Assembly: GCA_014728175.1 (NCBI GenBank)
Contig: WJMA01000054.1
Coordinates: 71,673-135,672 of the forward strand
Reading direction: 5' to 3'
DNA from: Candidatus Fermentibacterota bacterium
GTDB taxonomy: Bacteria > Fermentibacterota > Fermentibacteria > Fermentibacterales > JCC-6
Length of the DNA: 64,000 bases
Positions 7,745 through 62,832 of the stretch are shown piece after piece. Every line of letters begins with the position of its first letter. Within the stretch, counting starts at the first letter, position 1. The notes under the pieces were generated by a model. It saw only the letters and a list, made by a program, of their open reading frames with translations, made no database searches and was not told the origin of the DNA. The translations under genes and the position numbers were made by a program.

Positions 7745-7758
7745 TTACCAGTTAGTAA
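7745..7758. promoter_or_regulatory. Imperfect inverted repeat TTACCAGTTAGTAA immediately upstream of the tetR-like gene; candidate autoregulatory operator
   Basis: TTAC…GTAA arms about 20 nt upstream of the TetR start codon within a 134-bp intergenic region. The palindrome is imperfect. Confidence 0.25.
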
Positions 7759-7858
7759 CCTACCGACCGGCAATTAACATACCTGTCGAGTAGAGGTCGT
7801 CAACCCTAAACAGATAACTGATTGTAGATTAAATAATTACGCTGATCCGTGGTGGGCT

Positions 7859-28316: not shown

Positions 28317-29468
28317 ATGAAGCTCGAGGAGTTTCAGGCGAAGAAACTCTTCTCCAGGTCTGGAATACCGATCCCAGAGGGCAGCATGGTTACCACGGCC
28401 GAAGAGGCCCGGGAGACCGCCGGGAAGATAGGCTGCCCGGTGGTTGTAAAGGCCCAGGTCCAGACCGGGGGAAGAGGCAAGGCCGGTGGAGTAAAGCTGG
28501 CCCAGAGCCCCGAAGAGGCCCAGCAAAGAGCTTCGGAGATATTGGGCATGGACATCAAGGGCCACAAGGTGAAGCGCCTGCTGGTGGACCCCGCCGTAGA
28601 CATCCGGGGCGAGTTGTACGCGGGCATAACCGTCGACAGGAACAAGAAGGCTCCAGTGATGATGGTCTCCCCCGCCGGAGGGGTGGATATAGAGGAAGTG
28701 GCCCGGACCACGCCGGAGAAGATAACGTTCCAACGCATAGACCCACTTATGGGCCTGCAGCTCTTCGAGGCGAAACGTCTGGCTTTCGGCCTGTTCGACG
28801 AGAAGAAGAAGGCCCTGGCCACGGCCGGAATCCTGACCAGGCTGTGGAGCTGCTTCCGGGATTGCGACGCTTCCCTGGCGGAGATAAATCCTCTGGCCGA
28901 GCTGGCCGACGGCGGCATAATCGCCCTGGACGCCAAGATAGTCCTGGACGACAACGCCATGTACAGACATCCTGACCTGAAGGAGATGCGGCTGCCCACC
29001 CCGGACGAGGAGAAGGAGCTGCTGGCCAAGAGCAAGGGCCTCAGCTACGTCCAGCTGGAAGGAGAGATAGGCTGCATGGTTAACGGAGCGGGTCTGGCGA
29101 TGGCCACCATGGACCTGATCAAGCACCTCGGCGGCAGGCCGGCCAACTTCCTGGACATCGGGGGAAGCTCCAACCCGCAGAAAGTGATCGACGCCATGGA
29201 GCTGCTGGTCTCCGACCCCAACGTGCGGGTGATATTCATAAACGTGTTCGGGGGGATAACCCGCTGCGACGACGTGGCCAACGGGCTGGTCGAGGCGCTG
29301 GGACAGCTGGAGCTGGACCTCCCTCTGGTGGTCAGGCTCACCGGAACCAACGAGGACCAGGGCCGGGAGATACTGGCCAACGCCGGAATCACCGCCGTAA
29401 CCGACATGACCGAGGGGGCGAGCAAGGCGCTGGAGCTCGCTTCCGCCGGAGGGGGTGAGCGGGCATGA
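28317..29468 (+). CDS. sucC: succinate--CoA ligase (ADP-forming) beta subunit
   Basis: [12 protein letters not shown] start, ATP-grasp domain, 383 aa; 4-bp overlap with sucD. Confidence 0.9.
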
Positions 29469-30337
29469 GCATTCTGATAGACAAGGATACCAGGGTGATC
29501 GTTCAGGGCCTGGGACGCGACGGTTCCTTCCATGCCGCGCAGATGCTTGAATACGGCACCAACGTGGTGGGCGGAGTCCACCCCGGCCGCGGGGGAGAGA
29601 CCGAGTCGGGCTTTCCCGTGTTCAACGATTGCCGGGCGGCCGTGGAGAGTACGGGGGCGGACTGCAGCGTGCTCTTCGTTCCGGCCGGGTTTGCAGCCGA
29701 TGCGATAATGGAGGCCGCCGATGCGGGCATAGGCCTGGTAGTTGCTATCAGTGAGGGCATACCGGTGCTGGATATGACCCGGGTAACCGAGGTGCTGCAG
29801 CGCAAAGGCACCAGGCTGGTGGGGCCCAACTGCCCCGGTCTGATATCGCCCGGCAGGTGCAAGGTAGGCATCATGCCCGGAGCTATCTTCGAGGAGGGCA
29901 GAATAGGAGTGGTGAGCCGCAGCGGAACCCTCACCTACCAGGTGGTGAGACACGTCACCGACTCCGACCTCGGACAGTCGACCGCGGTGGGCATGGGTGG
30001 AGACCCGGTCACCGGTTTGGGCTTCATCGATTATCTGGAGCTCTTCGAGAAGGACGACCAGACGGAAGCGGTGGTCCTGGTGGGCGAGATAGGAGGAACC
30101 GCCGAGGAACGGGCGGCCGAGTTCGTCAAGGCTTCCATGAGCAAGCCGGTGGTCTCCTTCATAGTAGGTCGCACCGCGCCTCCCGGCAAACGCATGGGAC
30201 ACGCCGGGGCCATAATCTCGGGAGGATCCGGAACAGCGGAGGCAAAGGTGGCGGCCCTGACCGAGAACGACGTACCGGTGGCCGACACCACGGAGCAGAT
30301 CGTGCAGCTGCTCCAGGACGAGCTTGGAGGTCGATAG
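29465..30337 (+). CDS. sucD: succinate--CoA ligase alpha subunit
   Basis: CoA-binding and active-site His region (…[14 protein letters not shown]…), 290 aa. Confidence 0.9.
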
Positions 30338-31182
30338 TGAGAGATCTCGACGTATCGGAAATAACGGACGTCCTGAGGGAGATATGCATCTCCGCCAACG
30401 TATTTTTGGGCGAGGACGTCAAGACGGCGATCAAAAAGGCCAGGGATGCCGAGGAGTCCCCTCTGGGCAAGGAGATACTGGACGTCATACTGGACAACCA
30501 CAGTATCTCCGAGGAGAGCGACATGCCCCTTTGCCAGGACACCGGCTTCGCAGTCGTCTTCCTGGAGATCGGACAGGATGTACACCTGACCGGAGGCTAC
30601 CTGGAGGACGCGGTAAACGAAGGTGTACGAAGGGGTTACAAGGACGGCTATCTGAGGAAGTCCATAGTGGACGACCCCTCCATATCCCGCAAGAACACGG
30701 GCGACAACACGCCGGCGGTGATCCACACCCGCATCGTCCCCGGAGAGAAGGTGCGAATCGTGTTCGCGCCCAAGGGGGGCGGGTCGGAGAACATGAGCGA
30801 GGTAAGGATGATGACCGCCGCCGACGGCATAGAGGGCATCAAGGACTTCGTCGTGGAGCGGGTAAGGAAGTCCGGCGGCAACCCCTGCCCTCCCATTGTG
30901 GTGGGAGTGGGTATCGGCGGAACCTTCGAGAAGTGCGCCTATCTGGCGAAGAAGGCGGTTCTGAGACCGCTGGGGGAGCACAATCCCGATCCGCGTTACG
31001 CGGAGGTGGAGAAGGAGCTCCTGCAGCGGATCAACGATCTGGGCATAGGCCCGGCCGGATTCGGGGGCAGGACGACCGCGTTGGGGGTCAACGTGGAGAC
31101 CTTTCCCTGCCACATCGCTTCCATGCCGGTGGCGGTCAACATTCAGTGTCACGCCAGCAGGCATAAGGAAAGAACGCTGTAG
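30337..31182 (+). CDS. class I (Fe-S) fumarate hydratase, alpha/N-terminal subunit
   Basis: GTG start overlapping the sucD stop, with GGAGG 6 nt upstream; …SDMPLCQDTGFAVVF…, …KGGGSENMSEVRMM…, …IVVGVGIGGTFEKCAYLAKKA… match Fe-S hydro-lyase alpha-type blocks. The track's upstream extension into sucD is rejected. Confidence 0.85.
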   Translation: MRDLDVSEITDVLREICISANVFLGEDVKTAIKKARDAEESPLGKEILDVILDNHSISEESDMPLCQDTGFAVVFLEIGQDVHLTGGYLEDAVNEGVRRGYKDGYLRKSIVDDPSISRKNTGDNTPAVIHTRIVPGEKVRIVFAPKGGGSENMSEVRMMTAADGIEGIKDFVVERVRKSGGNPCPPIVVGVGIGGTFEKCAYLAKKAVLRPLGEHNPDPRYAEVEKELLQRINDLGIGPAGFGGRTTALGVNVETFPCHIASMPVAVNIQCHASRHKERTL

Positions 31183-31196
31183 GGGGTGGGGCAATC

Positions 31197-31754
31197 GTGA
31201 AGACATTGGAACTGAGCACACCGCTGGAATCACGGGAGCTACAAGAGCTCGACGTCGGGGACAAGGTCCTGCTCTCCGGAGAGGTCTACACGGCGCGCGA
31301 CGCCGCGCACAAGAGGCTGGTCGCGCTCATAGAGGAAGGCAAGGATCTGCCGTTCGAGCTAAAAGGGGCGGTTATCTACTACGTCGGTCCCGCCCCTTCC
31401 AGGCCGGGGCAGGTACTCAACTCGGCCGGACCAACCACCAGCTACAGGATGGATCCGTTCGCACCACTCCTTCTGGAACACGGCATGAAGGCCAGCATAG
31501 GCAAGGGCCCCCGGAGCCGCGAAGTCAGAGACGCCATGGTGAAATACAAGGCGGTTTACCTAGGCGCGGTCGGAGGGGCTGCGGCCGGCATAGCCTCCTC
31601 GGTCGAGGAGATGTCGGTGATAGCCTACGAGGACCTGGGCCCGGAGGCGGTGCGCAGACTGGTGGTCAAAGACATGCCCCTGTTCGTGGTGAACGACACC
31701 AAGGGCAAGGACCTGTTCGAGATCGGCGTGGCCGAGTACAGCAGAAGCGGCTAG
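31197..31754 (+). CDS. class I fumarate hydratase, beta/C-terminal subunit
   Basis: 185 aa; …VYTARDAAHKRL…YYVGPAP…SIGKGPRS… match beta-subunit blocks of the Fe-S hydro-lyase. Confidence 0.85.
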   Translation: MKTLELSTPLESRELQELDVGDKVLLSGEVYTARDAAHKRLVALIEEGKDLPFELKGAVIYYVGPAPSRPGQVLNSAGPTTSYRMDPFAPLLLEHGMKASIGKGPRSREVRDAMVKYKAVYLGAVGGAAAGIASSVEEMSVIAYEDLGPEAVRRLVVKDMPLFVVNDTKGKDLFEIGVAEYSRSG

Positions 31755-31773: not shown

Positions 31774-33420
31774 GTGGGGATGGAGGGCATAGCTAGGCGC
31801 AGGCCGCGCCCGCAGACCTTCTCGGGGCTGAGAAAAGAGCACCTGTTAGCCGGCCTGATCGTCTTGCTCCTGCTGGCGGTGTTCCTTCTTCCGGGCAGGT
31901 CGTTCTGGGCCATGGACGAGGGCAACCGCTACCTGCAGGTGGTGTCGCTGTCCAGAAGCGGGCTGCAGCTTCCTCCACCCATACCATATCCCGGCTCCGA
32001 GCTGCTTCCCCCCTCGCTCCTGCAGACCCTGAAGCCCCTTCCCTACCATTACGGAACCCTGGAGAACGGCCGCCTGTACAGCCAGTACAACCCTCTTATG
32101 GCCCTGCTATCTCTGCCGGGATACTTCCTGCTCGGGCGCAGTGGGATATACCTGATCCCTCTGTTGGCGGGCGCGCTGCTGGTCATGCATCTGTCGCGAC
32201 GCTATCGGCGCAGGGGCTGGCGGACCAAGACCTCCTTTGCCCTGGCCCTCCTTGCCACCCCGATCGTCTTCTACAGCCTTACCTTCTGGTCGCATACCCT
32301 GGCCCTCCTGCTGGGTCTCATCGCGTTGGATCAGGCCAGGCGGGGAAGCATTCGGGCGGCCATCGTGCTCACCGTGCTTTCCGTGCTGCTGAGGGAGGAG
32401 ATGCTCCTGCTGATACCCCTCATCATTCTGATAAGGCCGAGAGTCGCCTCTCCGATTTCCACAACCGCTACCGCCCTGGGCGCGGTAGCGTTTTTCCTGC
32501 TGGCACAGAGGGTGCTGACCGGAACCTGGCTGGGGACCCATCTGGCCGCCAGTGGTACCGAACAGGCCATATACGGGCATGCCGGGCTCTCCCTCCTCTC
32601 CTCCAAGCTGTACGTTGCGGCCCGGACGTTCTTCAGCATGCTGCCTGGAGTCCAGGGAGGTTGGGCCCTGCCGGCCGGGCTGGGGCTGTGGGGACTCTGG
32701 GGATTGGGCTTTCTGCCGGACCGCAGGATTGGGCGGGTGGCCAGGATGGTGGGAATGGGCGCCTGCGCCGCGATCCTGGTCTGGATGCTGGCCAGAGGCG
32801 CCCGGGCATCGGACACCCTGGTGGTGAAGCATCCCCTGCTGGTGTTCCCGGTACTGTGGCTCTGCTACCCCGACACCCGGAGAGGTCTTACCTTCCTGGG
32901 TCTGTGCCTCCTGGTCGTACTGGCACTGAGCCCCATGCACGTCGACGACCTGGCCTGGGGCCTTCGGCACACCCTTCTTCCCGTGTTCTTCCTGTCCCTG
33001 GGAATGCGTAAGGACCTGTCCAGGCCTCTTCTCCCACCGGTCCTGGTCCTGGGCGGCCTGGCCCTGCTGACCTCGATATCCCTGCTCACGGCCAAGCGGG
33101 TGAGGAGCGCCGAGCTCCTGGATCTATGCCGTTCCACGGGAAGTTCGGTGATCACCACCTCCTGGGAGCAGCCCCAGGACTTCGCTACCCTGATCGAGGA
33201 CGGGGTACCGGTGCTGATGGCGGACCGGGGCGGAGACCTTCTGGAAGCGCTCCGGGCGCTCTCGGAGAAGTACCCGGTGGTGGTATGCAGAAGCGAAAGC
33301 GCGGATCTGGCCATCAGGGCGGTGGAACTCTCCGGCATGCGTCCGACGGTCGTGGGTAGAGGCTACCCGGACGACCCTTTGCTGGATGTGGTGGTGGTGA
33401 CCACCGCCCGGCACCGTTGA
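31774..33420 (+). CDS. polytopic integral membrane protein, function unknown (possibly GT-C-fold/ArnT-like glycosyltransferase)
   Basis: 548 aa, at least 10 hydrophobic helices; early loop DEGNRYLQ reminiscent of the GT-C loop-1 acidic motif. No firm assignment. Confidence 0.5.
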   Translation: MGMEGIARRRPRPQTFSGLRKEHLLAGLIVLLLLAVFLLPGRSFWAMDEGNRYLQVVSLSRSGLQLPPPIPYPGSELLPPSLLQTLKPLPYHYGTLENGRLYSQYNPLMALLSLPGYFLLGRSGIYLIPLLAGALLVMHLSRRYRRRGWRTKTSFALALLATPIVFYSLTFWSHTLALLLGLIALDQARRGSIRAAIVLTVLSVLLREEMLLLIPLIILIRPRVASPISTTATALGAVAFFLLAQRVLTGTWLGTHLAASGTEQAIYGHAGLSLLSSKLYVAARTFFSMLPGVQGGWALPAGLGLWGLWGLGFLPDRRIGRVARMVGMGACAAILVWMLARGARASDTLVVKHPLLVFPVLWLCYPDTRRGLTFLGLCLLVVLALSPMHVDDLAWGLRHTLLPVFFLSLGMRKDLSRPLLPPVLVLGGLALLTSISLLTAKRVRSAELLDLCRSTGSSVITTSWEQPQDFATLIEDGVPVLMADRGGDLLEALRALSEKYPVVVCRSESADLAIRAVELSGMRPTVVGRGYPDDPLLDVVVVTTARHR

Positions 33421-33444: not shown

Positions 33445-35124
33445 TCAGCCCCTGATCGTACCCTGGTACTCCGTGGTCAGCTGTCTCTTCCTGACCTCGG
33501 GATTGCTGTAATCAGGAAGGATCATGGGCGCGATCCGGTCGGTATCAACGCCCTCCTTGTCCAGCTCCTGGTTGTACTGCTTCACGTGCTCCAGGGTAGG
33601 CTTGCCGGTCTCGCCCTTCTTTTTGACGAACTCCGCAGCGGCCTTGCCGGCTATCCTGCCGAACACGACCACGTCCAGTAGGGAGTTGCCCATAAGCCTG
33701 TTCTCGCCATGGACCCCCCCGGTTACCTCGCCGCTGGCGAAAAGCCCGGGAACGTTGGTCTCGCAGCTCTCGGTGATCTGCAGCCCGCCGTTCTGGTAGT
33801 GAAGGGTCGGATGGACCAGCATGGGCTCCCTGGAGATGTCTATCCCGTAGCGTTCGTAAAGGATATGCTTGGCGGGGAACTCCCTGCCAACTGTTCCCTC
33901 TCCCTTCAGCAGGTCTATCATCGGCGAGTCCAGCCATACGCCCACCTTGCCCGTGGGGGTGGGAACGCCCTTGCCCACGTCCTCGGAGCACTCGCGGATG
34001 ATACAGGCCGCCTCCACGTCTCGGGGCTCACGCTCGTAGACGAACTGCTCGCCGTCCACGTTGAGAATGTTGGCCCCCGCACCCCTGAACTTCTCGGTTA
34101 TCAGGATGCCCTCGGCCTGCTCGGGGTAGACCACGCCCGTCGGATGGTACTGCACCGTGTGCAGGAACGAGACCGGCACCCCGGCCCGGTAGGCCATCAC
34201 CACGCCGTCGGCGGTGGCCCCGTAATGGTTGGTGGTCATGAAGTCCTGGATGTGGAGCCTACCGCATCCGCCGGTTGCCAGAACCACGGCCTTGGCCCGG
34301 ACGTAGTGGTACTCCCTGGTCTCCAGGTTGTAGAGGATGGCTCCGGCGCACCTGCCCTTATCGTCCAGCACCAGATCAACGGCGGGGTTAAACTCGATGA
34401 CCTCTATGTCTTCCTCCCTGGACCTGGCCTCGTCCCTTATGGTCCGCATTATCTCCGCGCCGGTGATGTCGGCGGCGAAGTGCATGCGCTTCCGAGAGGT
34501 GCCTCCTCCATGCATCGTCTTCAGCGTTCCGTCGGACTCCTTGGAGAACATGGCTCCCAGCGACTCCAGCCACTGGATGGCGTCGGGGCCATTGTTCACC
34601 AGCCTTTTCACCAGCTGGGGAACGTTCTTGAAGTGTCCTCCGCCCAGTACGTCGAGGTAATGGTAGTAGGGAGAGTCCTTCCAGCCCTTGGAGGCGGCCT
34701 GGATGCCTCCCTCCGCCATCATGGTGTTGGCGTCACCGTGGCGGAGCTTGGTGGCTATGGTCACCTCCACCCCGTTCTCCTGGGCGATCAGCGCGGTCGA
34801 CGTTCCGGCGCCTCCCCCACCGATCACCAACAGGTCGGTGTCATAATCCGGCTCGGAAAGGTCGATCAGGCCGGGGTCTATCCTGCTGCGGGCCTCCAGA
34901 AGATCCACTATCTCGTTGCTTATGGAGTAGCCCTTACTGGGGCCGACCTTTATCTCCCGCCTGGTTCCCTTCCTGTAATCGGGATGGTACTTCCTGAGGA
35001 GCTCGTCCCTGTCTTCCACGTCCACGGCCTCGAACTCCTGACCTGCCTTCTTCCTCTCCACCCTTGCGGGTCGGGTGGCCTCCACTTTCTTGATGAGCTT
35101 CTTCAGACTTTCGGGGTACGGCAT
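33445..35124 (-). CDS. fumarate reductase/succinate dehydrogenase flavoprotein-family subunit (FrdA/TfrA-like) with a ~95-aa charged N-terminal extension
   Basis: FAD dinucleotide fold LLVIGGGGAGTSTAL and C-terminal …HYQNGGLQITESCETNVPGLFASGEVTGGVHGENRLMGNSLLDVVVFGRIAG, characteristic of FrdA/SdhA/NadB active-site region. The C-terminus is shorter than canonical SdhA. Confidence 0.85.
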   Translation of the reverse strand: MPYPESLKKLIKKVEATRPARVERKKAGQEFEAVDVEDRDELLRKYHPDYRKGTRREIKVGPSKGYSISNEIVDLLEARSRIDPGLIDLSEPDYDTDLLVIGGGGAGTSTALIAQENGVEVTIATKLRHGDANTMMAEGGIQAASKGWKDSPYYHYLDVLGGGHFKNVPQLVKRLVNNGPDAIQWLESLGAMFSKESDGTLKTMHGGGTSRKRMHFAADITGAEIMRTIRDEARSREEDIEVIEFNPAVDLVLDDKGRCAGAILYNLETREYHYVRAKAVVLATGGCGRLHIQDFMTTNHYGATADGVVMAYRAGVPVSFLHTVQYHPTGVVYPEQAEGILITEKFRGAGANILNVDGEQFVYEREPRDVEAACIIRECSEDVGKGVPTPTGKVGVWLDSPMIDLLKGEGTVGREFPAKHILYERYGIDISREPMLVHPTLHYQNGGLQITESCETNVPGLFASGEVTGGVHGENRLMGNSLLDVVVFGRIAGKAAAEFVKKKGETGKPTLEHVKQYNQELDKEGVDTDRIAPMILPDYSNPEVRKRQLTTEYQGTIRG

Positions 35125-35140
35125 GTATCTACCTCCAGAC

Positions 35141-35911
35141 CTAGTCCCGCTCCGACCGGCTCACAACGTAGTCCCGATCCTCGGGGACCCAGTCGTCCTC
35201 GGCGTTGTCGGGCTCGGCCTCTCTATCCCTGTAGATTTTTATCAGATCCTTCTCCTCCATGTCCATCAGCTCCTGCAACGGCTCATCGAAGCGTCCTCCC
35301 TCGACGGACTCCACCGCGTCGGCCAGGTGGTCGGCTGCCGGAACCAGATTCCTGCCGTGCAGCCTGCGGCAGAGGATGGCCACGTTGTACTGGACCTCCT
35401 CGGCCGGGCAGCGGGAGGCACAGAGCCCGCACATGATGCAATCGAAAGACAGCTCCGCCACTCCGGAGACGTCCCCTCTGATAGCCCTGGCCATGTACTG
35501 CATTACGTCGATATCCATGGGGCAGCTCTGGGTGCAGGCGTTACACCCTATGCACTTGAATATCTCCGGGTAGAGCTCGGCAACCTCTTCGCCGGTGCCC
35601 TCCATCTCGGTGATATCGTAGCCTGCCCTGTTCCCGGGGAAGAACGGAAGAAGGGTCAGGTACATCCCGGGCTGTACGACCGTCTGGCAGGCCAGACCCA
35701 CCTCCAGTCGGTAGCTGCCGGGGGTTCTGTAAACCGTGCCGCAAGCTCCGCATACGCCGCCCCTACAGCCGCAGCCCCGGATCAGCTGGTATCCAGCGTA
35801 CTCCATGGCCTTCTGAATGGTCAGGCTGGCGGGCACGTCGAAACGCTCACCCATCACGAATATGGGCACCATCTCCTCGCTGGGTGCCTGGGAAGTATTC
35901 TTAGCTGTCAT
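35141..35911 (-). CDS. SdhB/FrdB-like iron-sulfur subunit (2Fe-2S plus two Cys4 clusters)
   Basis: Start at M130 of the track ORF (MTAKNTSQ…) gives an ATGA overlap with mvhD. Motifs RGCGCRGGVCGACG (2Fe-2S), CIGCNACTQSCP and CIMCGLCASRCP. Confidence 0.8.
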   Translation of the reverse strand: MTAKNTSQAPSEEMVPIFVMGERFDVPASLTIQKAMEYAGYQLIRGCGCRGGVCGACGTVYRTPGSYRLEVGLACQTVVQPGMYLTLLPFFPGNRAGYDITEMEGTGEEVAELYPEIFKCIGCNACTQSCPMDIDVMQYMARAIRGDVSGVAELSFDCIMCGLCASRCPAEEVQYNVAILCRRLHGRNLVPAADHLADAVESVEGGRFDEPLQELMDMEEKDLIKIYRDREAEPDNAEDDWVPEDRDYVVSRSERD

Positions 35912-36330
35912 ACAGTCATCTCCTTCGAAGCAAGGCTCAACGGACCCTTCTTCCTGAGCTCCTCGCTGAAGTTGTCCATCACCTCCGCGAACTTCTTCCC
36001 CTCCGCAGCGGAGATCCACTCCAGCCTGAGACGGGAGGATTCTATGCCCAGCTGGTCCAGGACCCGGCGCAGCAGCGCCATCCTGGTCTGGGTTCTGTAG
36101 TTTCCGTCCTGGTAGTGGCAGTCGCCGGGATGGCAGCCCCCCACCAACACGCCGTCCGCTCCCTGCCTGAAGGCCCACATGATGTGCTCCGGATCCACTC
36201 TGCTCGAACACATGAACCTCAGGTTGATCCCGTTGGGGGAGTACTTCAACCTGGAGGTCCCCGCCAGATCCGCCCCGGCGCTGGTACACCACTTGCATAC
36301 GAAGCAGACTATCTTGGGCTCGAACATCAT
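35908..36330 (-). CDS. mvhD: MvhD-family [2Fe-2S] electron-transfer protein (methyl-viologen-reducing hydrogenase delta subunit homolog), copy 1
   Basis: IVCFVCKWCTSAGADLAGTSRLKYSPNGINLRFMCSSRVDP…GCHPGDCHYQDGN is the MvhD signature; 4-bp overlaps on both sides. Confidence 0.8.
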   Translation of the reverse strand: MMFEPKIVCFVCKWCTSAGADLAGTSRLKYSPNGINLRFMCSSRVDPEHIMWAFRQGADGVLVGGCHPGDCHYQDGNYRTQTRMALLRRVLDQLGIESSRLRLEWISAAEGKKFAEVMDNFSEELRKKGPLSLASKEMTV

Positions 36331-38282
36331 TCCTCCCCCAGGCTAGCGGTTATCATCTCCAATATCTGCCTGTCGGTAAGGTTGCTCTGCTGGGTGGCCC
36401 CGCAGGGACAGGCCGCCACGCATGCTCCGCATCCCTCGCACAGGGCCTCGTTGACGACCGCTATCTCCTCTTCCTCGTCGTACTCCCGCGCGTCGTAGGG
36501 ACACACGGAGATGCAAACCCGGCAGCCGCCGCAGACATCCTCGTCGACGGCCGCGATCATGGGATCCTGTTCCATCTCGTCCTTGGAGAACAGCGCCGTT
36601 ACCTTGCTGGCCGCCCCGCTGGCCTGGGCGACGGTATCGGGAATGTCCCGGGGCGACTGCCCGCAACCGGCCAGATAGAAACCGGCGGTTATGCTCTCCA
36701 CCGGGCGAAGCTTGGGATGGGCCTCGTTCAGGAAGCCGTTCTCCCCGGTCTGGATCTTCAGCTTCTTGGCCAGGTCCTGCACTCCGGTTCCGGGGACCAC
36801 GGCGGTTGCCAGAACCACCAGGTCGGCCCTTATCTCTACGTTGCGCCCGGCGAGGCTATCAGTCCCCCACACCACGGTCTGGTCACCGTCACGGAAGATG
36901 CTGGCCACCTTTCCTTTCAAGTAGACTACACCCTCTTCCTCCTCCGCGCGGTGGTAGAATTCCTCGTAACCTTTTCCGCCCGTGCGCACGTCTATGTAGA
37001 AGATGTACGGCTGGCCGTCGTGAACCCGGTGCTTGTAGAGCATGGCGTGCTTCGTGGTGTACATGCAGCATATACGGGAGCAGTAGGGCTGGTATCTCTC
37101 GGGGTCCCTCGACCCGGCGCACTGAACGAAGACCACCTCCTTGGGAACCTTGCCGTCGGATGGTCTTCTCACCTCTCCCACCGTAGGGCCGGAGGCCGAG
37201 AGGAGCCTCTCGAAGGCCAGCCCGTCTATTACATCGGGAACCTCTCCCCCGCCGTACTCCGCTATTCTCTGCAGGGGAAGCGTCTCGTAGCCGGTGGCCA
37301 CTACGATTGCCCCCACCTCCTCCTCCACGATCTCATCCTCCTGGTCGAACCTTATGGACCCAACCTCGCAGGTGCTCTCGCAGAGCTTGCACTTGCCGGT
37401 GCGGTAGTAGACGCAGTTGTCTCTGTCTATGACCGGCTTGTTGGGAACGGCCTGGGGGAAGGGGACGTATATCGCTCCCCTGTCGTCCAAGCCCCGATTG
37501 AACTCGGAGGGAACCTTGACCGGACACTTCTCCATGCACTCGCCGCAACCGGTGCAGGTGGCCCAGTCCACGCTGGGGGCCTTCCGGCGAATCTTCACCG
37601 TGAAGTTACCCACGTAGCCGGACACCTCCTCCACTTCCGAGTAGGTCATCAGCTTTATGCGGGGGTGTTTCCCCACCTCCACCATCTTGGGGGTGAGGAT
37701 GCACTGGGAGCAGTCCAGGGTGGGGAAGGTCTCGGAGAGCTGAGCCATGTGCCCCCCTATGGACGGCTCGCGCTCCACCAGCACCACCTCGTAGCCGGAA
37801 TTGGCTATGTCCAGTGAGGCCTGGATTCCTGCTATACCGCCTCCTATCACCATCGCCCTTCTATTGATGGGAACCCTTATGGGCTCCAGGGACTCGTTGA
37901 GATAGGTCTTGGCCACTATGGACTTGATTATCTTGACCGCCTTGGCGGTGGCCCTCTCCCGGTCCTCGTGCACCCAGCTGCACTGCTCGCGGATGTTGGC
38001 TATCTCGCACTGGTACGGGTTCAGACCCGCCTCCGCGCTGGCCTGCCTGAACGTAAGCTCGTGCAGGGATGGCGAGCATGCCGCAACCACCACCGCGTCC
38101 AGCTTCTCATTCTTAATGGTATCCCTGACCAGCTCCTGGCCCGGGTCTGAGCACATGTAGATGTAGCTCTGGGCGTGCGTTATCCTGGGGTCCTTCCGGA
38201 GCTCCTCCACCACCCGGTCCACGTCTACGGTATTGGCAATGTTGATACCGCAGTGGCAGACGAAAACGCCTATCCTCTTCAC
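36327..38282 (-). CDS. hdrA: heterodisulfide reductase subunit A (FAD, multiple 4Fe-4S; electron-bifurcating type)
   Basis: 651 aa; MKRIGVFVCHCGINIANTVD N-terminus, FAD fold VIGGGIAGIQASLD, several CxxCxxCxxxCP ferredoxin motifs and the C-terminal MvhD-like Cys cluster region. Confidence 0.9.
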   Translation of the reverse strand: MKRIGVFVCHCGINIANTVDVDRVVEELRKDPRITHAQSYIYMCSDPGQELVRDTIKNEKLDAVVVAACSPSLHELTFRQASAEAGLNPYQCEIANIREQCSWVHEDRERATAKAVKIIKSIVAKTYLNESLEPIRVPINRRAMVIGGGIAGIQASLDIANSGYEVVLVEREPSIGGHMAQLSETFPTLDCSQCILTPKMVEVGKHPRIKLMTYSEVEEVSGYVGNFTVKIRRKAPSVDWATCTGCGECMEKCPVKVPSEFNRGLDDRGAIYVPFPQAVPNKPVIDRDNCVYYRTGKCKLCESTCEVGSIRFDQEDEIVEEEVGAIVVATGYETLPLQRIAEYGGGEVPDVIDGLAFERLLSASGPTVGEVRRPSDGKVPKEVVFVQCAGSRDPERYQPYCSRICCMYTTKHAMLYKHRVHDGQPYIFYIDVRTGGKGYEEFYHRAEEEEGVVYLKGKVASIFRDGDQTVVWGTDSLAGRNVEIRADLVVLATAVVPGTGVQDLAKKLKIQTGENGFLNEAHPKLRPVESITAGFYLAGCGQSPRDIPDTVAQASGAASKVTALFSKDEMEQDPMIAAVDEDVCGGCRVCISVCPYDAREYDEEEEIAVVNEALCEGCGACVAACPCGATQQSNLTDRQILEMITASLGEE

Positions 38283-39223
38283 CGGCTCCCACCCCCCTTC
38301 AGAGAACCCAGGGCCTTCTCGACCACCGGTTCGGGATCAACGTAGTGCTTGTCGAATCCTAAATCCGAGATATCCAGATCCATGGCCATCCCCAGAACCT
38401 GGGTGAAGTAAAGGATCGGAATGCTCTTGGTACCCGGATAGAGCTCGGAGATCATCTTCTGTCTGGAATCCAGATTGTAGAAACAAAGGGGGCAGCTTAC
38501 CACGATGGCGTCCGCGCCCTTCTCGGCGGCCGAGGATATGATGTTGCTGCACAGCCTGGCGGAGGATTCGGGAAAGGAGACGGAGAGATATGATCCGCAG
38601 CAGACCGTTCGGTAGGGATAGGCTACGGTCTCGGCCCCCAGGGCCACCAAAAAGTCCTCGATTATGGTGGGGTTCTCCACGCTGTCCAGCCCTATCTCGT
38701 CCTCAGGCCTGAGCATGACGCAACCGTAGTATGGAGCCAGCCGGAGCCCGGATAGCTCGGTGCTTCGGCTCTGGGCTATCTCCTCGAAACCCACCACGTC
38801 ACGCAGGTACTCCAGCAGATGCATCACCTGGACCTCGCCCAGGTAATCCCGGTAATCCTCCTCCGTGGATGGGAGGTAATCCCTCTTGGGCTGGTTCTCC
38901 CTCAGGAAGGCATTGACCCGCTTGCGGTCGAGGTCGCTGGTACTAACCCGATGGTTGGCTCTCTTCAGGCTGTTGTAGCAGAAGTCGCATATGGTCACCA
39001 GAACCTCGTCTCCCGTATCCCGCACGTCCTTCAGTATCCTTATGGGAGCGACGAGGTTCATTATCCTCTCCTCGGACGGCGGTGGAACCGCGCCACAGCA
39101 CGTCCAGGAGTCCAGCTCGTCCAGCTCGAAGCCCAGCTTCTCGGCTGCACCGAGCGCCGGCCTCTCCAGGTGTGCGGACCTCTCCTTCAGAGCGCAACCC
39201 GGATAATAGGCCACCCTAGTCAT
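38279..39223 (-). CDS. hdrB: heterodisulfide reductase subunit B (two CCG domains)
   Basis: MTRVAYYPGCALKE…WTCCGA and a second …YYGCVMLRP… CCG-type Cys-rich domain. Confidence 0.9.
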   Translation of the reverse strand: MTRVAYYPGCALKERSAHLERPALGAAEKLGFELDELDSWTCCGAVPPPSEERIMNLVAPIRILKDVRDTGDEVLVTICDFCYNSLKRANHRVSTSDLDRKRVNAFLRENQPKRDYLPSTEEDYRDYLGEVQVMHLLEYLRDVVGFEEIAQSRSTELSGLRLAPYYGCVMLRPEDEIGLDSVENPTIIEDFLVALGAETVAYPYRTVCCGSYLSVSFPESSARLCSNIISSAAEKGADAIVVSCPLCFYNLDSRQKMISELYPGTKSIPILYFTQVLGMAMDLDISDLGFDKHYVDPEPVVEKALGSLKGGGSR

Positions 39224-39268
39224 TGTTCCTCCATGCTAAGTAACGGTGTTTTCGAAACCGGCTCCCGG

Positions 39269-39706
39269 TCAGGTCGAGAGCTTCCGGTACGCGGAAACCA
39301 GACCCGGTTGGGGAACCTCGGCGGCGTTCCTGGGGTCGACCTGGTCCGGGCCGAAGTGATCGATCCCTTCGGCCAGGGCCATCTGGCGAAGAACGTCCAT
39401 CACCTTTTGTATGTCTATACCCTTGGGACACCGCACGGTACATTGAAGACAGCTTGCACAGACCCAGATGCTCCTGCTGTTCAGGACAGCTTCACTCTGA
39501 CCGAGTTGGACCAGATGCATGACCGTGCTGGGCAACAGATCCATCTCTTCGGCGAGGGGACAACCGGAGGAGCAGTTGCCGCACTGGTAGCAGGCGAGGA
39601 TGTGCTGCTCGCTCAAGCTGTCCAATCTCTTTCCGAACTCGCCCCGCACCTTTTCCCGGTCCAGCCTCAGACGCGGAGTAGTCTCGTTATCCGCTCCTTC
39701 AGCCAT
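39269..39706 (-). CDS. hdrC: heterodisulfide reductase subunit C (2x4Fe-4S)
   Basis: CYQCGNCSSGCP and CASCLQCTVRCP motifs; start at M48 (MAEGADNE) preceded by GAGAGGAG; the track's 47-codon upstream extension is rejected. Confidence 0.8.
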   Translation of the reverse strand: MAEGADNETTPRLRLDREKVRGEFGKRLDSLSEQHILACYQCGNCSSGCPLAEEMDLLPSTVMHLVQLGQSEAVLNSRSIWVCASCLQCTVRCPKGIDIQKVMDVLRQMALAEGIDHFGPDQVDPRNAAEVPQPGLVSAYRKLST

Positions 39707-40154
39707 GGCTCTCCTCTCGAGAAAGGAACCTCCGCCGGAGGGCTGGTTATCCCATCCAACTGCCCCCGGCTGGTCCCTCCCGATGTAGACTCTTCGGAAA
39801 TGTAGAGCTCCCGCGAATGGTTCCCGCGCGCCGGCGGAATATCGCAAATAACAGAGCCCATAAGTATAAGATCCTAATCAAGTGGATAGGGAATAGAATC
39901 CTACTTTCCAGATATGTCAAGGCGAGTTCCGCCCTCCGGCGGAGCAATGCGTTGAGGTGCGGCTTTCGGGGTATTCGTCTTGACAAGATTGACCTCTCGT
40001 ATTCTTGTACCCACTCGTTCCAAAGAGGCTAGGCAAGTGCGAAGTGCGGTGGTTGGAAACGAGTTGCCGTACGGATGTCCGAACTACGAGCCATAACCCT
40101 CAACATGCCCGACCGTACCTGCGAGCGGCCGTAAGAAAACGGAAAGACACCAAG

Positions 40155-50990: not shown

Positions 50991-51149
50991 ACCTTCATCC
51001 AATCTGGACAATTAGAACAGATTTGGTATGCTTTTCCTTCCGTTGACAGTATTGTTGGAACCTATTCAATGCCTACTGAATTGATATGATGCGTGCAGGG
51101 CAACCCGGTGACGCCGGGCAACCATCCCATATTTAGAAAGGTTATCCCC

Positions 51150-52580: not shown

Positions 52581-52587
52581 GTGTAGA

Positions 52588-53646: not shown

Positions 53647-53666
53647 GCTTACGGCACCTGGGAACC

Positions 53667-54251: not shown

Positions 54252-54666
54252 GGATCCCAGGATAGTGGTCTTCTGCTGCAACTGGTCGATTTATCCCGGG
54301 CTCCAGCTGTCGGCGATCGACGAGAATCCAGACGATCTTCCCGGGGTGAGCCACATAGTCTCCATGTGCTCGGGGAGGGTCTCACCCGAGCTGGTCATAG
54401 AGGCCTTCGTTAACGGCGCCTGGGGCGTAATGCTCGCCGGTTGCCCGACCGACGAGTGCGAGCACGATGGCAACTACAAGACCAGAAAACGCTTCATAAT
54501 GCTACGTAAAGTTTTGGAGGAATTCGGCATTGAGCCGGGTAGGATAAGCATGGACTGGTTCTCTACCGGAGAGGTCGCGAAGCTCAAGCAATCGGTGCGG
54601 GAGTTCGTCGACCGTATAACGGAGATGGGACCGGCTAGAGTCGTAAAGGAACAAGAACTCGGATAG
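54244..54666 (+). CDS. mvhD: MvhD-family [2Fe-2S] protein, copy 2 (hydrogenase-associated)
   Basis: IVVFCCNWSIYPGLQLS…GCPTDECEHDGNYK; TTG start at 54244 after AAGGGGG, overlapping the upstream stop (alternative GTG at 54265). The track's 52-codon upstream extension is rejected. Confidence 0.75.
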   Translation: MSEDPRIVVFCCNWSIYPGLQLSAIDENPDDLPGVSHIVSMCSGRVSPELVIEAFVNGAWGVMLAGCPTDECEHDGNYKTRKRFIMLRKVLEEFGIEPGRISMDWFSTGEVAKLKQSVREFVDRITEMGPARVVKEQELG

Positions 54667-54674
54667 GAGCCCGT

Positions 54675-55655
54675 ATGTCATCTAAACCAAAGGTGGCGTT
54701 CTACTGGAACGCCTCTTGCGGCGGATGCGAGGAAGCCGTCGTAGACCTCGCCGAAGATATACTCCAGGTGGTCGAGGCAGTGGACATAGTCTTCTGGCCG
54801 GTCGCCCTGGACTTCAAGAAGAAGGACGTAGAGGCGATGGACGACGGAGAGATCGCGGTCAGCTTCATCAACGGCGCAATCAGGACCGACGAGCAGAGGG
54901 AGATGGTCGAGCTTCTCAGGCGCAAGTCGGGGCTGGTGGTCGCCTTCGGCTCCTGCGCCCACATAGGGGGGATACCCGGGCTGGCAAACTTCTACAACCG
55001 GGAGCTCATCTTCGACCGGGCCTACAGGACGGTACCCAGCACACCGAACCCCGACGGGGTGCTTCCCCGGACCAGCTCCGACATCGATGACGACGAACTA
55101 ACGCTTCCGGAGTTCTGGGACACCGTAAAGACCCTCGACCAGGTGATAGACGTGGACTACTACCTTCCCGGCTGCGCCCCTCCCCCGGACCTCATCATGG
55201 ACGCGGTCACCGCTATTCTGGAGGCGAACCTCCCGGAGAAGGGCACGGTCCTAGCGCCCAGGAAGAATCTCTGCGACACCTGCCCCAGATCAGAGAGCAA
55301 ACCGGACAAGATCTCCATAGAGAGCCTGAAGCGGCCCTACGAGATCGAGGCCGATCCGGAAAAATGCTTTCTGGAAGAGGGCATAATCTGCCTGGGCATG
55401 TCGACCAGATCTGGCTGCGGAGAGAGGTGCATAAACGCCAACATGCCCTGCAGGGGTTGCTTCGGTCCGGCCGAGGAGGTGTTCGACCAGGGAGCCAAGG
55501 GTCTTTCGGCCATAGCTTCCATACTGGGTCTGGAGAAAGAGGAAGAGCTCACGGACGAGGACATAGAGAGGCTGATCGACAGAATACCCGATCTGGCGGG
55601 CCTGTTCTACATGTACAGCCTTCCCTCCTCGCTACTTCGAAGGAAGAAGCTCTAG
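54675..55655 (+). CDS. mvhG: [NiFe] hydrogenase small subunit, Mvh/group 3c type (MvhG)
   Basis: VAFYWNASCGGCEEAV…FGSCAHIGGIPG proximal-cluster motifs; 326 aa. Confidence 0.85.
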   Translation: MSSKPKVAFYWNASCGGCEEAVVDLAEDILQVVEAVDIVFWPVALDFKKKDVEAMDDGEIAVSFINGAIRTDEQREMVELLRRKSGLVVAFGSCAHIGGIPGLANFYNRELIFDRAYRTVPSTPNPDGVLPRTSSDIDDDELTLPEFWDTVKTLDQVIDVDYYLPGCAPPPDLIMDAVTAILEANLPEKGTVLAPRKNLCDTCPRSESKPDKISIESLKRPYEIEADPEKCFLEEGIICLGMSTRSGCGERCINANMPCRGCFGPAEEVFDQGAKGLSAIASILGLEKEEELTDEDIERLIDRIPDLAGLFYMYSLPSSLLRRKKL

Positions 55656-55708
55656 TTGGATAACGACACGGACCCTGCCACAGGCATTCTGGGAGGAATG
55701 GAACAACG

Positions 55709-57172
55709 ATGGCGAACAAACGAGTCACTATAGACCCTATCACCAGGCTGGAGGGCCACGGTAAGATAGAGATATTCCTCGACGATGAGGGGAACGTGGA
55801 CAAGGCGTTCCTCCAGGTCCCAGAGCTGAGGGGATTCGAGAAGTTCTCCGAGGGACGGATGGCCGAGGAGATGCCCAGGATAACCCCCAAGATATGCGGC
55901 GTCTGCCCCACCACCCATCACATGGCCTCCGGCAAGACTTTGGACGATCTATTCAACGTAGACCCCCCGCCCGCGGCGAAGAAGATACGTGAGCTGGTCA
56001 ACTCGGCGTTCATGGCGGAGGACCACACCCTCCACTTCTTCTTCCTGGGTGGGCCCGACTTCATCGTGGGCCCGGACGCCCCCGCGGGCCAGAGGAACAT
56101 TCTGGGGGTGATCGAGAAGGTCGGCCTGGACGCCGGCAAGAAGGTGATAGAGATCCGCAGGCGCCTGCGCGACATAATCACCAAGCAGGGCGGCAGGGTG
56201 ATCCACCCGGTCTGCAATCTCCCCGGCGGGGTGTCCAAGGGCGTCACCGAAGAGGACCGTCAGGAGTACATCCAGACCGGCAAGGACGCCATAGACTTCT
56301 CGCAGTTCGCCTTGCAGGCGTTCTCGGACATAGTCCTGGAGAACGAGAGGTACGTCAACATAATCACCTCCGACGTTTACCTGCACCATACGTACTACAT
56401 GGGCCTGGTCGACGAGGACAACAAGGTGAACTTCTACGACGGCGAGATCAGGGTGGTGGACCCCGACGGCGAGGAGTTCGCCAAGTTCGACGCCCACGAG
56501 TACCTCGACCACATAGAGGAGCACGTGGAACCCTGGAGCTACATAAAGTTCCCCTTCCTCAAGAACGTAGGTTGGAAGGGATTCGTCGACGGCAAGGACA
56601 GCGGTGTCTACCGGGTCGCGCCGCTTGCCAGGCTCAACGCATCCGACGGCATGGCCACTCCCAAGGCCCAGGAGGCCTACGAGCAGATGTACGACGTGCT
56701 GGGAGGAAAACCCGCCCACAACACTCTCGCCTACCACTGGGCCAGGCTGATAGAGCTCCTGTATGCGTCTGAAAGGCTGCTGGAGCTGGCCGAGGACGAG
56801 GAGATACTGGACCCCAAGATCAGGAACATCCCCACCGACACTCCCGACGAGGGAGTGGGAGTGGTGGAGGCACCCAGAGGAACCCTCTACCACCACTACA
56901 AGACCGACGACAGAGGAGTTCTCACCGACGTCAACCTGATAGTGGCCACGGTGAACAACTCGGCAGCCATATCCATGTCCATCGCCAGGGCGGCCGAGAA
57001 GGTTATATCGGGCAGAGAGGTCGCCGACGGCCTTCTTAACCTGGTGGAGATGGCCTTCAGGGCCTACGACCCCTGCCTGGCCTGCGCCACCCACTCCCTT
57101 CCCGGCGAGACGCCGCTGGAGGTAAGGGTCTACGATCACCGGAGGGAGCTGCTGCAGACCCTCACCAGATGA
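55709..57172 (+). CDS. mvhA: [NiFe] hydrogenase large subunit, Mvh/group 3c type (MvhA)
   Basis: N-terminal RLEGHGKI and RICGVCPTTHHMAS (L1 Ni-binding CxxC); C-terminal DPCLACATHS (L2) followed by a cleavable tail. Confidence 0.9.
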   Translation: MANKRVTIDPITRLEGHGKIEIFLDDEGNVDKAFLQVPELRGFEKFSEGRMAEEMPRITPKICGVCPTTHHMASGKTLDDLFNVDPPPAAKKIRELVNSAFMAEDHTLHFFFLGGPDFIVGPDAPAGQRNILGVIEKVGLDAGKKVIEIRRRLRDIITKQGGRVIHPVCNLPGGVSKGVTEEDRQEYIQTGKDAIDFSQFALQAFSDIVLENERYVNIITSDVYLHHTYYMGLVDEDNKVNFYDGEIRVVDPDGEEFAKFDAHEYLDHIEEHVEPWSYIKFPFLKNVGWKGFVDGKDSGVYRVAPLARLNASDGMATPKAQEAYEQMYDVLGGKPAHNTLAYHWARLIELLYASERLLELAEDEEILDPKIRNIPTDTPDEGVGVVEAPRGTLYHHYKTDDRGVLTDVNLIVATVNNSAAISMSIARAAEKVISGREVADGLLNLVEMAFRAYDPCLACATHSLPGETPLEVRVYDHRRELLQTLTR

Positions 57173-57627
57173 AAACGCTGGTCCTGGGGCTGGGCAATCC
57201 GATACTGAGCGACGATGCCGTGGGCATCAGGATAGCCCGGGAGCTGCGGAAACGGGTCGACGGAGTGGACGTCGAGGAGGGAGCGGTAGCGGGGATAACC
57301 ATCCTCGACCACATACAGGGCTACGACAGCCTGGTGATCGTAGATTCGATCAAGACCGGAAAGTCACCCCCCGGGCATCTGCACGTCCTTCGGCCGGAGG
57401 ACCTGGACTGCGTGACCAGACCGTCGCGCTCCCACCACGGTCTGGGGCTGGTCAGAGCACTGAGCATAGGCAAACGCATGGGCTACGATCTGCCGGATAC
57501 AATTAGGATATACGCAGTGGAGGTTCTGCGGAACGACGAGTTCGGCGAGGATCTGTCCCCCCAGGTGGAGGAAAGCGTTCCCGCCGTAGTCGAGGCCATA
57601 GCGTCCTACCTCACCGAAAGACAGTAG
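57169..57627 (+). CDS. hydrogenase maturation endopeptidase (HycI/FrhD/HybD family)
   Basis: 152 aa; MKTLVLGLGNPILSDDAVGIR…HGLGL… motifs; 4-bp overlap with mvhA. Confidence 0.85.
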   Translation: MKTLVLGLGNPILSDDAVGIRIARELRKRVDGVDVEEGAVAGITILDHIQGYDSLVIVDSIKTGKSPPGHLHVLRPEDLDCVTRPSRSHHGLGLVRALSIGKRMGYDLPDTIRIYAVEVLRNDEFGEDLSPQVEESVPAVVEAIASYLTERQ

Positions 57628-61308: not shown

Positions 61309-61314
61309 CGGAGG

Positions 61315-62810: not shown

Positions 62811-62832
62811 CAATGTGTTTCGGGAGTAACCG

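Follow-up and report, generated by a model that had tools for sequence, protein, structure and literature searches.

A conserved operon for a predicted Hdr-coupled soluble fumarate reductase in a Candidatus Fermentibacterota bacterium

Gene organization of the operon

The stretch of DNA analysed here, 64,000 nucleotides of contig WJMA01000054.1 from a Candidatus Fermentibacterota bacterium (hereafter the window), carries on its minus strand the six genes hdrC-hdrB-hdrA-mvhD-frdB-frdA. These code for homologues of the three subunits of heterodisulfide reductase (HdrABC), for MvhD and for an iron-sulfur (FeS) protein and a flavoprotein related to soluble fumarate reductases. Gene positions were taken from a table of open reading frames and are listed, with those of other features of the window, in Table 1. 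As set out in a preliminary description of the window, the genes are closely packed: three junctions (frdB/mvhD, mvhD/hdrA and hdrA/hdrB) are overlaps of 4 bp, and gaps of 16 bp and 45 bp separate frdB from frdA and hdrC from hdrB, respectively. Purine-rich ribosome-binding sites were read directly from the sequence ahead of the ATG codons of hdrC at 39706 (GAGAGGAG) and of hdrB (GGAGGA). A consensus scan found no promoter- or terminator-like sites above chance inside the operon, and no Rex-box or inverted repeat above chance in the promoter regions. Given the tight junctions and the result of the scan for internal sites, co-transcription of the six genes can reasonably be inferred, and nothing was found that argues against it.

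Table 1. Positions of the operon genes and of other features in the window
Feature	Position	Strand	Remarks
sucC, sucD, fumarate hydratase alpha (~30340-31182) and beta (31197-31754)	28317..31754	+	Pfam/NCBIfam
Polytopic membrane protein	31774-33420	+	548 aa; flanked by fumB and the frdA 3' end
Flavoprotein (frdA/tfrA-like)	33445..35124	-	559 aa; N-terminal extension, residues 1-96
FeS subunit (frdB-like)	35141..35911	-	256 aa; Cx4Cx2C...C and two CxxCxxCxxxCP motifs
mvhD	35908..36330	-	140 aa; [2Fe-2S] adaptor of Mvh hydrogenase
hdrA	36327..38282	-	651 aa, GTG start; full-length bifurcating-type flavoprotein
hdrB-like	38279..39223	-	314 aa; two complete CCG motifs (non-cubane cluster ligands)
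hdrC-like	39269..39706	-	145 aa; two CxxCxxCxxxCP [4Fe-4S] motifs; Fer4_17/Fer4_8 match
Divergent intergenic region	39707..40004	.	298 bp; between hdrC and the aconitase-family/icd/pckA genes; presumed operon promoter region
mvhD2 (~54253-54666), mvhG (54675-55655), mvhA (55709-57172), hycI protease (57169-57627)	54253..57627	+	Candidate electron-donor module

HdrABC and MvhD

The identity and the intactness of the Hdr modules were observed directly. HdrA, which had been described as belonging to the bifurcating type, is indeed full length: residues 3-650 align to residues 13-655 of 8rvu_a with 713 bits (691 bits against 5odc_A), and every cluster and cysteine motif of the methanogen protein of known structure is kept in the 8rvu alignment. 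Its architecture is complete, with an N-terminal cluster domain, a flavin adenine dinucleotide (FAD) domain with an inserted ferredoxin and a C-terminal ferredoxin domain, and it scored 801 bits with NCBIfam HdrA2. HdrB was matched twice by the CCG domain (PF02754), in two copies of the spacing Cx31-39CCx35-36CxxC, and all motif cysteines align to 8rvu_b (136 bits). It reached 161 bits with the HdrB model TIGR03288 and 144 bits with SdhE (the MFR anchor); both scores are under the cut-offs, and no subfamily was therefore assigned. HdrC gave 69 bits with TIGR03290, under the cut-off of 160. MvhD scored 170 bits with PF02662 (FlpD) and 115 bits with VhuD, and is 62-81% identical to the MvhD proteins encoded at the same position in related loci with the gene order of the window (type 1, see below).

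The flavoprotein and the FeS subunit

The flavoprotein was matched by FAD_binding_2 (PF00890) over residues 97-482 with 254 bits, and the Pfam hidden Markov model (HMM) Succ_DH_flav_C (PF02910) gave no match. An N-terminal extension of about 95 residues and a short C-terminus, both pointed out earlier, are thus real features of the protein, and the extension is found family-wide, identity to the best 120 homologues running over the full length with the extension included. The best NCBIfam model was TfrA (NF004900), with 342 bits against a cut-off of 718 and over model positions 6-426 of 546. The protein fell under every NCBIfam equivalog cut-off, far under those of SdhA/FrdA, and scored 276 bits with NadB versus 292 bits with Sdh/Frd. 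The predicted model was poor, with a predicted local distance difference test score (pLDDT) of 58 from 38 close homologues; the top Foldseek matches were SdhA/FrdA.

To map residues, the protein was aligned with HMMER to the structures 3p4p and 7d6v, of E. coli FrdA and M. smegmatis SdhA. H327, T343/E344, R368, H442 and R476 align to H232, T244/E245, R287, H355 and R390 of E. coli FrdA, and these catalytic and dicarboxylate-binding residues are invariant in the 38 homologues. The position of the histidine that binds FAD covalently is held by Asn133, likewise invariant. The preliminary description had named placement in a non-fumarate family as one outcome that would speak against its reading; with all catalytic residues kept, the flavoprotein stays in the fumarate family. 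A different substrate, for an L-aspartate-oxidase-like or other enoate/2-hydroxyacid oxidoreductase sharing the fold, would be in keeping with the scores under all equivalog cut-offs, the closeness of the NadB and Sdh/Frd scores, the atypical termini and an FeS partner that is no SdhB by HMM or fold. The invariance of all fumarate-binding and proton-donor residues speaks against it, as does the recurrence of fumarase, sucCD and korABG as neighbours in unrelated phyla; the annotated neighbours included no nadA or nadC, and NadB is not known to have an FeS partner. We give this alternative a very slim chance.

The FeS subunit contains the motifs C49x4C54x2C57...C75, C120xxC123xxC126xxxC130P and C158xxC161xxC164xxxC168P, all invariant in the family. 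The earlier label of sdhB/frdB-like holds for this SdhB-type cysteine pattern and fails for family placement by HMM and fold search: the SdhB model TIGR00384 gave 21 bits (cut-off 88), SdhB/FrdB proteins in the PDB gave only 24-29 bits with the family profile, and Foldseek returned no match at E <= 0.001. The subunit is treated here as a putative [2Fe-2S]+2[4Fe-4S] connector with SdhB-like clusters that lies outside the SdhB family. HdrB is the only CCG protein of the operon. FrdB lacks a CCG domain, and FrdAB alone could therefore not oxidise a thiol as TfrB does.

Conservation and variant architectures

Homologues of the flavoprotein number in the thousands; the best 120, from many phyla, are 70-93% identical over their full length, and identity across phyla is about 70%. 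At least 555 loci were found in a scan of one genome per species, and architectures were mapped by laying the window proteins on the best 80 of these. Carriers include Fermentibacterota, Aminicenantes, KSB1, Zixibacteria, Gemmatimonadota, Ignavibacteria, Thermodesulfobacteriota and Dehalococcoidia, in which the usual annotation is only 'FAD-binding protein' and '4Fe-4S dicluster protein'. The gene order of the window recurs widely and in many phyla; it is thus not unique to this contig, and the arrangement is not due to chance.

Four arrangements were distinguished. The order hdrC-hdrB-hdrA-mvhD-frdB-frdA (type 1) was found in 21 loci. In type 2, hdrC-hdrB-frdB-frdA occurs without hdrA or mvhD (16 loci, and 3 more with a gap), in hosts that include Ignavibacteria, Zixibacteria, Gemmatimonadaceae, Myxococcota and Krumholzibacteriia. 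Type 3, hdrA-hdrC-hdrB-HdrL(1009 aa)-mvhD-FeS(403 aa)-frdB-frdA, often then sucCD, was found in 21 loci of Thermodesulfobacteriota/Syntrophaceae, and these HdrL-type loci resemble the HdrABC/HdrL cluster of Syntrophobacter fumaroxidans (PMC5947623). The fourth arrangement, hdrCBA-frdBA with no mvhD between, was found in 5 loci. Since hdrC-hdrB still adjoin frdBA in the 16 loci that lack hdrA and mvhD, HdrBC is a conserved partner of FrdBA; across the architectures this partner is constant, and MvhD is not. In Aminicenantes, genes for a korA/B/G-type 2-oxoacid:ferredoxin oxidoreductase and a fused fumarase follow the cluster.

At L016, one locus of the HdrL type, an HdrL-like protein with two Pyr_redox_2 regions and ferredoxin domains is encoded at 3166-6195, with a further gene at 6816-8027; 20 similar loci were seen. 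Across the FrdB alignments (L001-L080), the FeS subunit has a second cubane motif whose sequence was seen to track architecture: loci with hdrA have C[IV]MCGLCxxRCP, and most of the hdrCB-only loci listed have CIQCGLCxxRCM, a form also seen in L080, which has hdrA, and in L022, which is truncated upstream. The first motif also varies, KC[IV]GC versus RC[VIL]AC. These variants hint at different docking partners.

In a gammaproteobacterial subfamily (47% identity, 545 aa), the flavoprotein is encoded in a three-gene operon of the order FeS (212 aa)-flavoprotein-NuoF-like (L083/L084, 9366-12891). The NuoF-like protein is composed of Complex1_51K and NADH_4Fe-4S domains, and the operon has no Hdr genes and sits among genes for DsrE-, rhodanese- and cytochrome-c-domain proteins. 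Its products probably form a soluble NADH:fumarate oxidoreductase. The donor modules thus vary, with Mvh, HdrL and NuoF-like proteins in the loci examined and Flx in the literature. On the simplest reading FrdBA would be a portable acceptor module, and exchangeable donors are what would be expected if it forms the acceptor end.

Hydrogenase genes in the window and in related loci

The preliminary description had placed FrdBA behind MvhD instead of a hydrogenase. This was not borne out, either in the window or in its relatives. Genes for an Mvh/Vhu-type [NiFe] hydrogenase lie 15 kb from the operon, behind a second mvhD paralogue (mvhD2) that came to light when the window was searched by tblastn with the operon proteins; its product is 34% identical to the operon MvhD and its gene is directly upstream of mvhG. 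The best NCBIfam models were VhuG (221 bits) for mvhG and VhuA (418 bits) for mvhA, both under the equivalog cut-offs, and the best PDB match of MvhA was 5odc_F (407 bits).

In 11 relatives (L001, L003, L004, L005, L007, L008, L009, L011, L017, L075 and L081) the order is hdrCBA-mvhD-frdBA-mvhGA; mvhG directly follows frdA in 10 type-1 loci, and mvhA does so too where the contig is long enough. The closest named relative, L081 (the contig of an 81%-identical Fermentibacterota protein), reads hycI-hdrC-hdrB-hdrA-mvhD-FeS-flavoprotein-mvhG-mvhA; these genes were called independently, and those after frdA carry Oxidored_q6 and NiFeSe_Hases domains. In L057 the order is frdB-frdA-mvhD-mvhG-mvhA-hycI. 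Relatives of the window mvhG and mvhA, 48-79% identical, adjoin frdA in L001, L003, L005, L007, L008, L011, L017 and L075, and in L057 they come after frdA-mvhD. Judged by gene order, MvhD belongs with the hydrogenase, as in methanogens, and frdBA is inserted in the otherwise classical hdrCBA-mvhDGA cluster of the relatives.

The placement of the hydrogenase genes in the window also raises the alternative that no hydrogenase serves the operon in this lineage: reduced ferredoxin, from pyruvate or 2-oxoglutarate:ferredoxin oxidoreductase, or some other donor would deliver electrons to fumarate, MvhD would be a leftover or a docking site, and Mvh would belong to the operon of the GlcD-like, CCG, polyferredoxin and mvhD2 genes. 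The tight spacing of mvhG-mvhA-hycI after mvhD2, at 8, 53 and -4 bp, fits this, as do the equally detached arrangement in L082 (93% identical) and the 11 type-1 and 4 type-1b loci without hydrogenase genes directly after frdA. Against it, the conservation of the operon mvhD relative to its type-1 counterparts indicates purifying selection, and the window mvhA is most similar (79%) to the frdA-adjoining mvhA of L017. Transfer from ferredoxin to fumarate would moreover waste about 90 kJ, and a bifurcating HdrA would not be needed. This alternative is considered quite improbable.

The hydrogenase genes end a run of seven tightly spaced genes (51093-57627, plus strand) for a GlcD-like FAD oxidase, a Fer4+CCG protein (best NCBIfam TfrB, 153 bits), a polyferredoxin with a C-terminal half like the C-terminal ferredoxin domain of HdrA, MvhD2, MvhG, MvhA and HycI. 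A LarA-like gene lies at 45058-46326 in the same window, and no counterpart of the run was seen in 80 related loci. It looks like a 2-hydroxyacid (lactate/glycolate-type) dehydrogenase that is genetically coupled to Mvh hydrogenase.

Other metabolic genes of the window

The neighbouring sucCD and class I fumarase genes were confirmed to be present on the opposite strand. They are not upstream of the operon, as had been stated; they are convergent with it, past the 3' end of frdA and with the gene for the 548-aa membrane protein between. The fumarase alpha subunit scored 422 bits, over the equivalog cut-off of 276. In the pathway context these enzymes would supply fumarate and consume succinate. 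The membrane protein had no Pfam match, only a weak one to the LA_3751/LA_3752 glycosyltransferase family; a 541-aa gene in L082 (4941-6566) was likened to it by position alone. Divergent from hdrC are genes for a two-subunit aconitase-family hydratase, an NADP-isocitrate dehydrogenase (over the equivalog cut-off) and an ATP-dependent phosphoenolpyruvate carboxykinase, followed further along by a LarA-like protein, a malic enzyme-phosphotransacetylase (PTA) and an acetate kinase fusion. This neighbourhood of tricarboxylic acid (TCA) cycle and fermentation genes fits fumarate/succinate as the substrate. The earlier description of a fumarate-reductase-type flavoprotein with an FeS partner, tightly linked to HdrABC/MvhD and to TCA genes, is upheld, and the linkage is conserved.

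The acetate kinase fusion (48669-50990, plus strand, 773 aa) is unusual in that it joins a cyclic-nucleotide-binding domain, a full acetate kinase and a PTAC phosphate-propanoyltransferase domain, suggesting nucleotide-regulated formation of acetate or propionate. At 59466-63725 (plus strand) lie genes for ShyB/AsrA-like (Fer4_22), ShyC/AsrB-like FAD/NAD(P)-binding, DmsB-like FeS, NuoH-like and NuoC-like proteins. They may belong to a membrane-bound complex, Mbx/Fpo-like or related to sulfhydrogenase, whose genes continue past the end of the window.

Comparison with known systems

The methanogen MvhAGD-HdrABC complex (5ODC, 8RVU) shares with the system described here a full-length HdrA, an HdrB with two CCG domains, HdrC, MvhD and an Mvh/Vhu-type large subunit, and, in the relatives, the gene order hdrCBA-mvhD...mvhGA. 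It differs in that the host here is bacterial, a flavoprotein/FeS pair stands between mvhD and mvhGA in the relatives, HdrB and HdrC score far under the methanogen equivalog cut-offs, and the hydrogenase genes are detached in the window.

Methanothermobacter TfrAB (Heim et al. 1998, as cited in PMC8542988) is likewise a soluble fumarate reductase with a flavoprotein of the same superfamily, and combines [2Fe-2S], 2x[4Fe-4S] and CCG domains. In contrast to TfrA, the window flavoprotein lacks the C-terminal domain and has 95 additional N-terminal residues; the CCG domains reside in a separate HdrB, unfused to the FeS subunit, and HdrC, HdrA and MvhD stand alongside. A methanogen-like scheme with a diffusible thiol as intermediate is an alternative to direct transfer. 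In this two-step scheme, Hdr, fed by Mvh or another donor, would reduce a bacterial disulfide, and HdrBC-FrdBA, acting as a split TfrAB, would re-oxidise the thiol with fumarate; candidates for the carrier are a low-molecular-weight thiol and a protein of the DsrC/TusA/lipoate type. The scheme is the one used in PMC6315080, PMC8542988 and PMC11636981. It draws on TfrA as the best HMM of the flavoprotein, on the two CCG motifs of HdrB, the site of disulfide chemistry in the 5ODC and 8RVU structures, and on the type-2 loci, in which hdrCB-frdBA have the composition of TfrAB spread over four genes. With HdrB as the sole CCG protein and no CCG domain in FrdB, however, a thiol shuttle would need the same HdrBC for both tasks, and the single HdrBC pair of each operon would both reduce and oxidise one couple. 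No DsrC, TusA or LbpA gene is present in the window, in agreement with the earlier statement on DsrC, nor was one seen in the neighbourhoods sampled around L002, L030 and L067 or beside type-1b or type-2 loci. To our knowledge, coenzyme M (CoM) and coenzyme B (CoB) are not to be expected in these bacteria, which also counts against the scheme. It is considered unlikely.

Clusters in which genes termed tfrAB accompany Hdr genes have been described from genomes. In reductive TCA (rTCA) clusters, Rubin-Blum et al. 2019 (PMC6315080) found tfrAB among flxABCD-hdrABC and korABCD and proposed direct electron shuttling; such clusters with 'TfrAB' and Flx-Hdr are carried by Endoriftia and Thioflavicoccus (PMC6315080, PMC11636981). 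In Endoriftia, Mitchell et al. 2024 (PMC11636981) reported co-expression, with tfrAB itself off the shared expression pattern. According to Koendjbiharie et al. 2020 (PMC7282089, citing Preprints 201912.0288), the 'succinate operon' of Pseudoclostridium thermosuccinogenes comprises fumarase, Flx-Hdr and fumarate reductase, and ferredoxin-coupled fumarate reduction was proposed. In the cloacimonadotal Ca. Celaenobacter, the cluster of Williams et al. 2021 (PMC8542988) combines thiol:fumarate reductase, 2-oxoglutarate:ferredoxin oxidoreductase, fumarase, succinyl-CoA synthetase, Mvh (group 3c) and Hdr, and a 'TfrAB' and Hdr cluster was predicted from genomes of Bipolaricaulia (bioRxiv 2023.11.26.568696).

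Likened by their descriptions, these clusters and the loci studied here have in common an AB-type soluble fumarate reductase beside HdrABC, a donor module and TCA genes such as those for fumarase, succinyl-CoA synthetase and 2-oxoglutarate:ferredoxin oxidoreductase, and flavin-based bifurcation to ferredoxin and fumarate has been proposed for them. By description, too, the window and loci L001-L082 carry Hdr-linked TfrAB-type clusters as the literature defines them, and the published clusters, from their descriptions, appear to belong to the same protein family. Most published clusters differ in using FlxABCD with NADH as donor, and the window is set apart by its unlinked donor hydrogenase and its additional mvhD. 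The preliminary description was right in that no biochemical characterisation, by purification or activity measurement, was found for such clusters in the literature searched; its claim to novelty was overstated. The proposal that Hdr-linked 'TfrAB' act as bifurcating fumarate reductases goes back to 2019 (PMC6315080, PMC7282089), and models similar to the one favoured below appear in genome-based papers (PMC8542988, PMC6315080 and PMC7282089). The operon in the window is a further case of a predicted Hdr-coupled soluble fumarate reductase, a theme familiar from these papers.

Type E succinate:quinone reductases and methylmenaquinol:fumarate reductases (SdhABE, MfrABE; PMC2754724, PMC2680327) also combine an SdhAB-type pair with a subunit of two CCG domains, and the score of the window HdrB with the MFR SdhE is near its HdrB score, as is the case in type-2 and type-3 loci. 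They differ from the system described here, which has an HdrC-like subunit along with HdrA and MvhD, a flavoprotein devoid of the C-terminal domain and of the histidine for covalent FAD, and no quinone-related or membrane subunit in the operon. The five-subunit soluble fumarate reductase of Hydrogenobacter thermophilus, as outlined in the summary in PMC13147460, is again soluble and multi-subunit, serves the reductive TCA branch and joins an Sdh/Frd-family A subunit to extra electron-input subunits; its donor, unlike that considered here, is NADH. Its nearest analogue among the loci examined is the frdB-frdA-nuoF-like operon of the 47%-identical gammaproteobacterial subfamily. Miura and colleagues are said to have found in 2008 that the genes of the H. 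thermophilus enzyme are dispersed in the genome.

Discussion

The physiological high-potential acceptor of bacterial HdrABC is largely unknown. It is considered likely that the operon encodes a Hdr-coupled soluble fumarate reductase/succinate dehydrogenase. The more specific model that we favour, a cytoplasmic enzyme that takes electrons from H2 via Mvh and bifurcates them to ferredoxin and fumarate, is nearly evenly balanced between belief and doubt, with doubt slightly ahead. An Mvh-type [NiFe] hydrogenase (MvhAG) would oxidise H2, and MvhD would hand the electrons to the bifurcating FAD of HdrA. The uphill electron would pass through the ferredoxin-type clusters of HdrA to ferredoxin; the downhill electron would pass through HdrC to the clusters of HdrB, the FeS subunit and the non-covalent FAD of the flavoprotein, where fumarate would be reduced to succinate. 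Fumarate (+33 mV) would serve as high-potential acceptor instead of the methanogen CoM-S-S-CoB (-140 mV), and no diffusible heterodisulfide would therefore be needed. We infer in this model that the proteins assemble physically into one complex, that electrons take a path from HdrB to FrdB, that the reaction is directed toward fumarate reduction and that ferredoxin is the second acceptor. A role of fumarate is supported by sucCD after frdA in Thermodesulfobacteriota, by korABG and fumarase after frdA in Aminicenantes and by sucCD, fumarase, icd and pckA in the window.

With standard potentials (H2, -414 mV; fumarate, +33 mV; ferredoxin, about -450 to -500 mV), the proposed net reaction, 2 H2 + fumarate + Fd(ox) -> succinate + Fd(red) + 2 H+, was calculated to yield about -70 to -80 kJ, and is thus more favourable than with the heterodisulfide. 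The same potentials bear on operation in reverse, as a confurcating succinate dehydrogenase in which electrons from succinate and reduced ferredoxin merge at the HdrA flavin and form H2 (NADH in the HdrL variants); this would spare syntrophic propionate and succinate oxidisers membrane-bound reverse electron transport. The family is abundant in metagenome-assembled genomes of Syntrophaceae, Syntrophobacterales and other Thermodesulfobacteriota, with sucCD after frdA; for Aegiribacteria MLS_C, a carrier of the cluster (L001), oxidation of propionate by way of succinate has been predicted (PMC4846661), and flavin-based bifurcating enzymes are generally reversible (PMC5861303). Averaging +33 mV and about -480 mV gives, however, about -225 mV, so that formation of H2 would need about 0.1 Pa H2 or a very low fumarate/succinate ratio, at the edge of feasibility, and pckA, malic enzyme-PTA and acetate kinase in the window fit a succinate-forming fermentation at least as well. 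The reverse direction is attractive for the Syntrophaceae-type loci and thermodynamically marginal; as an account of the operon it is judged unlikely.

Several observations weigh against H2-driven bifurcation to ferredoxin and fumarate in this form. The operon of the window contains no hydrogenase genes, and neither does that of the 93%-identical contig L082; the Mvh genes stand behind mvhD2 and the GlcD-like/CCG/polyferredoxin set, and in this lineage Mvh may serve another enzyme. Of the type-1 loci in which the sequence continues for 1.5 kb or more past frdA, 11 lack mvhGA directly after it; L078, one of these, has an mvhA homologue some 2.4 kb upstream of hdrC. The ligand set of a true disulfide-reducing site is complete in HdrB, so that a bound or diffusible thiol/disulfide intermediate is possible. 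The FeS subunit is no recognisable SdhB by HMM or fold, and the pLDDT of the flavoprotein model is too low for the role of its N-terminal extension to be read.

A bolder form of the favoured model is put forward tentatively, with more doubt than confidence: HdrB would turn over no disulfide, and its two non-cubane clusters would be relays in an unbroken FeS wire that links the flavins of HdrA and FrdA, within an eight-subunit Mvh-Hdr-Frd supercomplex that uses fumarate as bifurcation acceptor. In syntrophs the supercomplex could run in reverse, as a confurcating soluble succinate dehydrogenase. If true, this would give a first defined physiological acceptor for a bacterial HdrABC and a new form of energy conservation from fumarate reduction without quinones or membranes.

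Bacterial HdrABC are common, and in the present case the operon itself seems to encode the acceptor enzyme. The breadth and strong conservation of the family, and the concrete acceptor that it suggests for bacterial Hdr, recommend it for biochemical study. A point of use in annotation is that FrdBA would be a portable acceptor module, to judge by the variants with hydrogenase, HdrL and NuoF-like proteins. If reduction of fumarate and of ferredoxin is coupled, the energy yields of succinate and propionate fermentation and the energetics of carbon fixation by the reductive TCA cycle in uncultured anaerobes would need revising, as possibly would the succinate-oxidation step of syntrophy.

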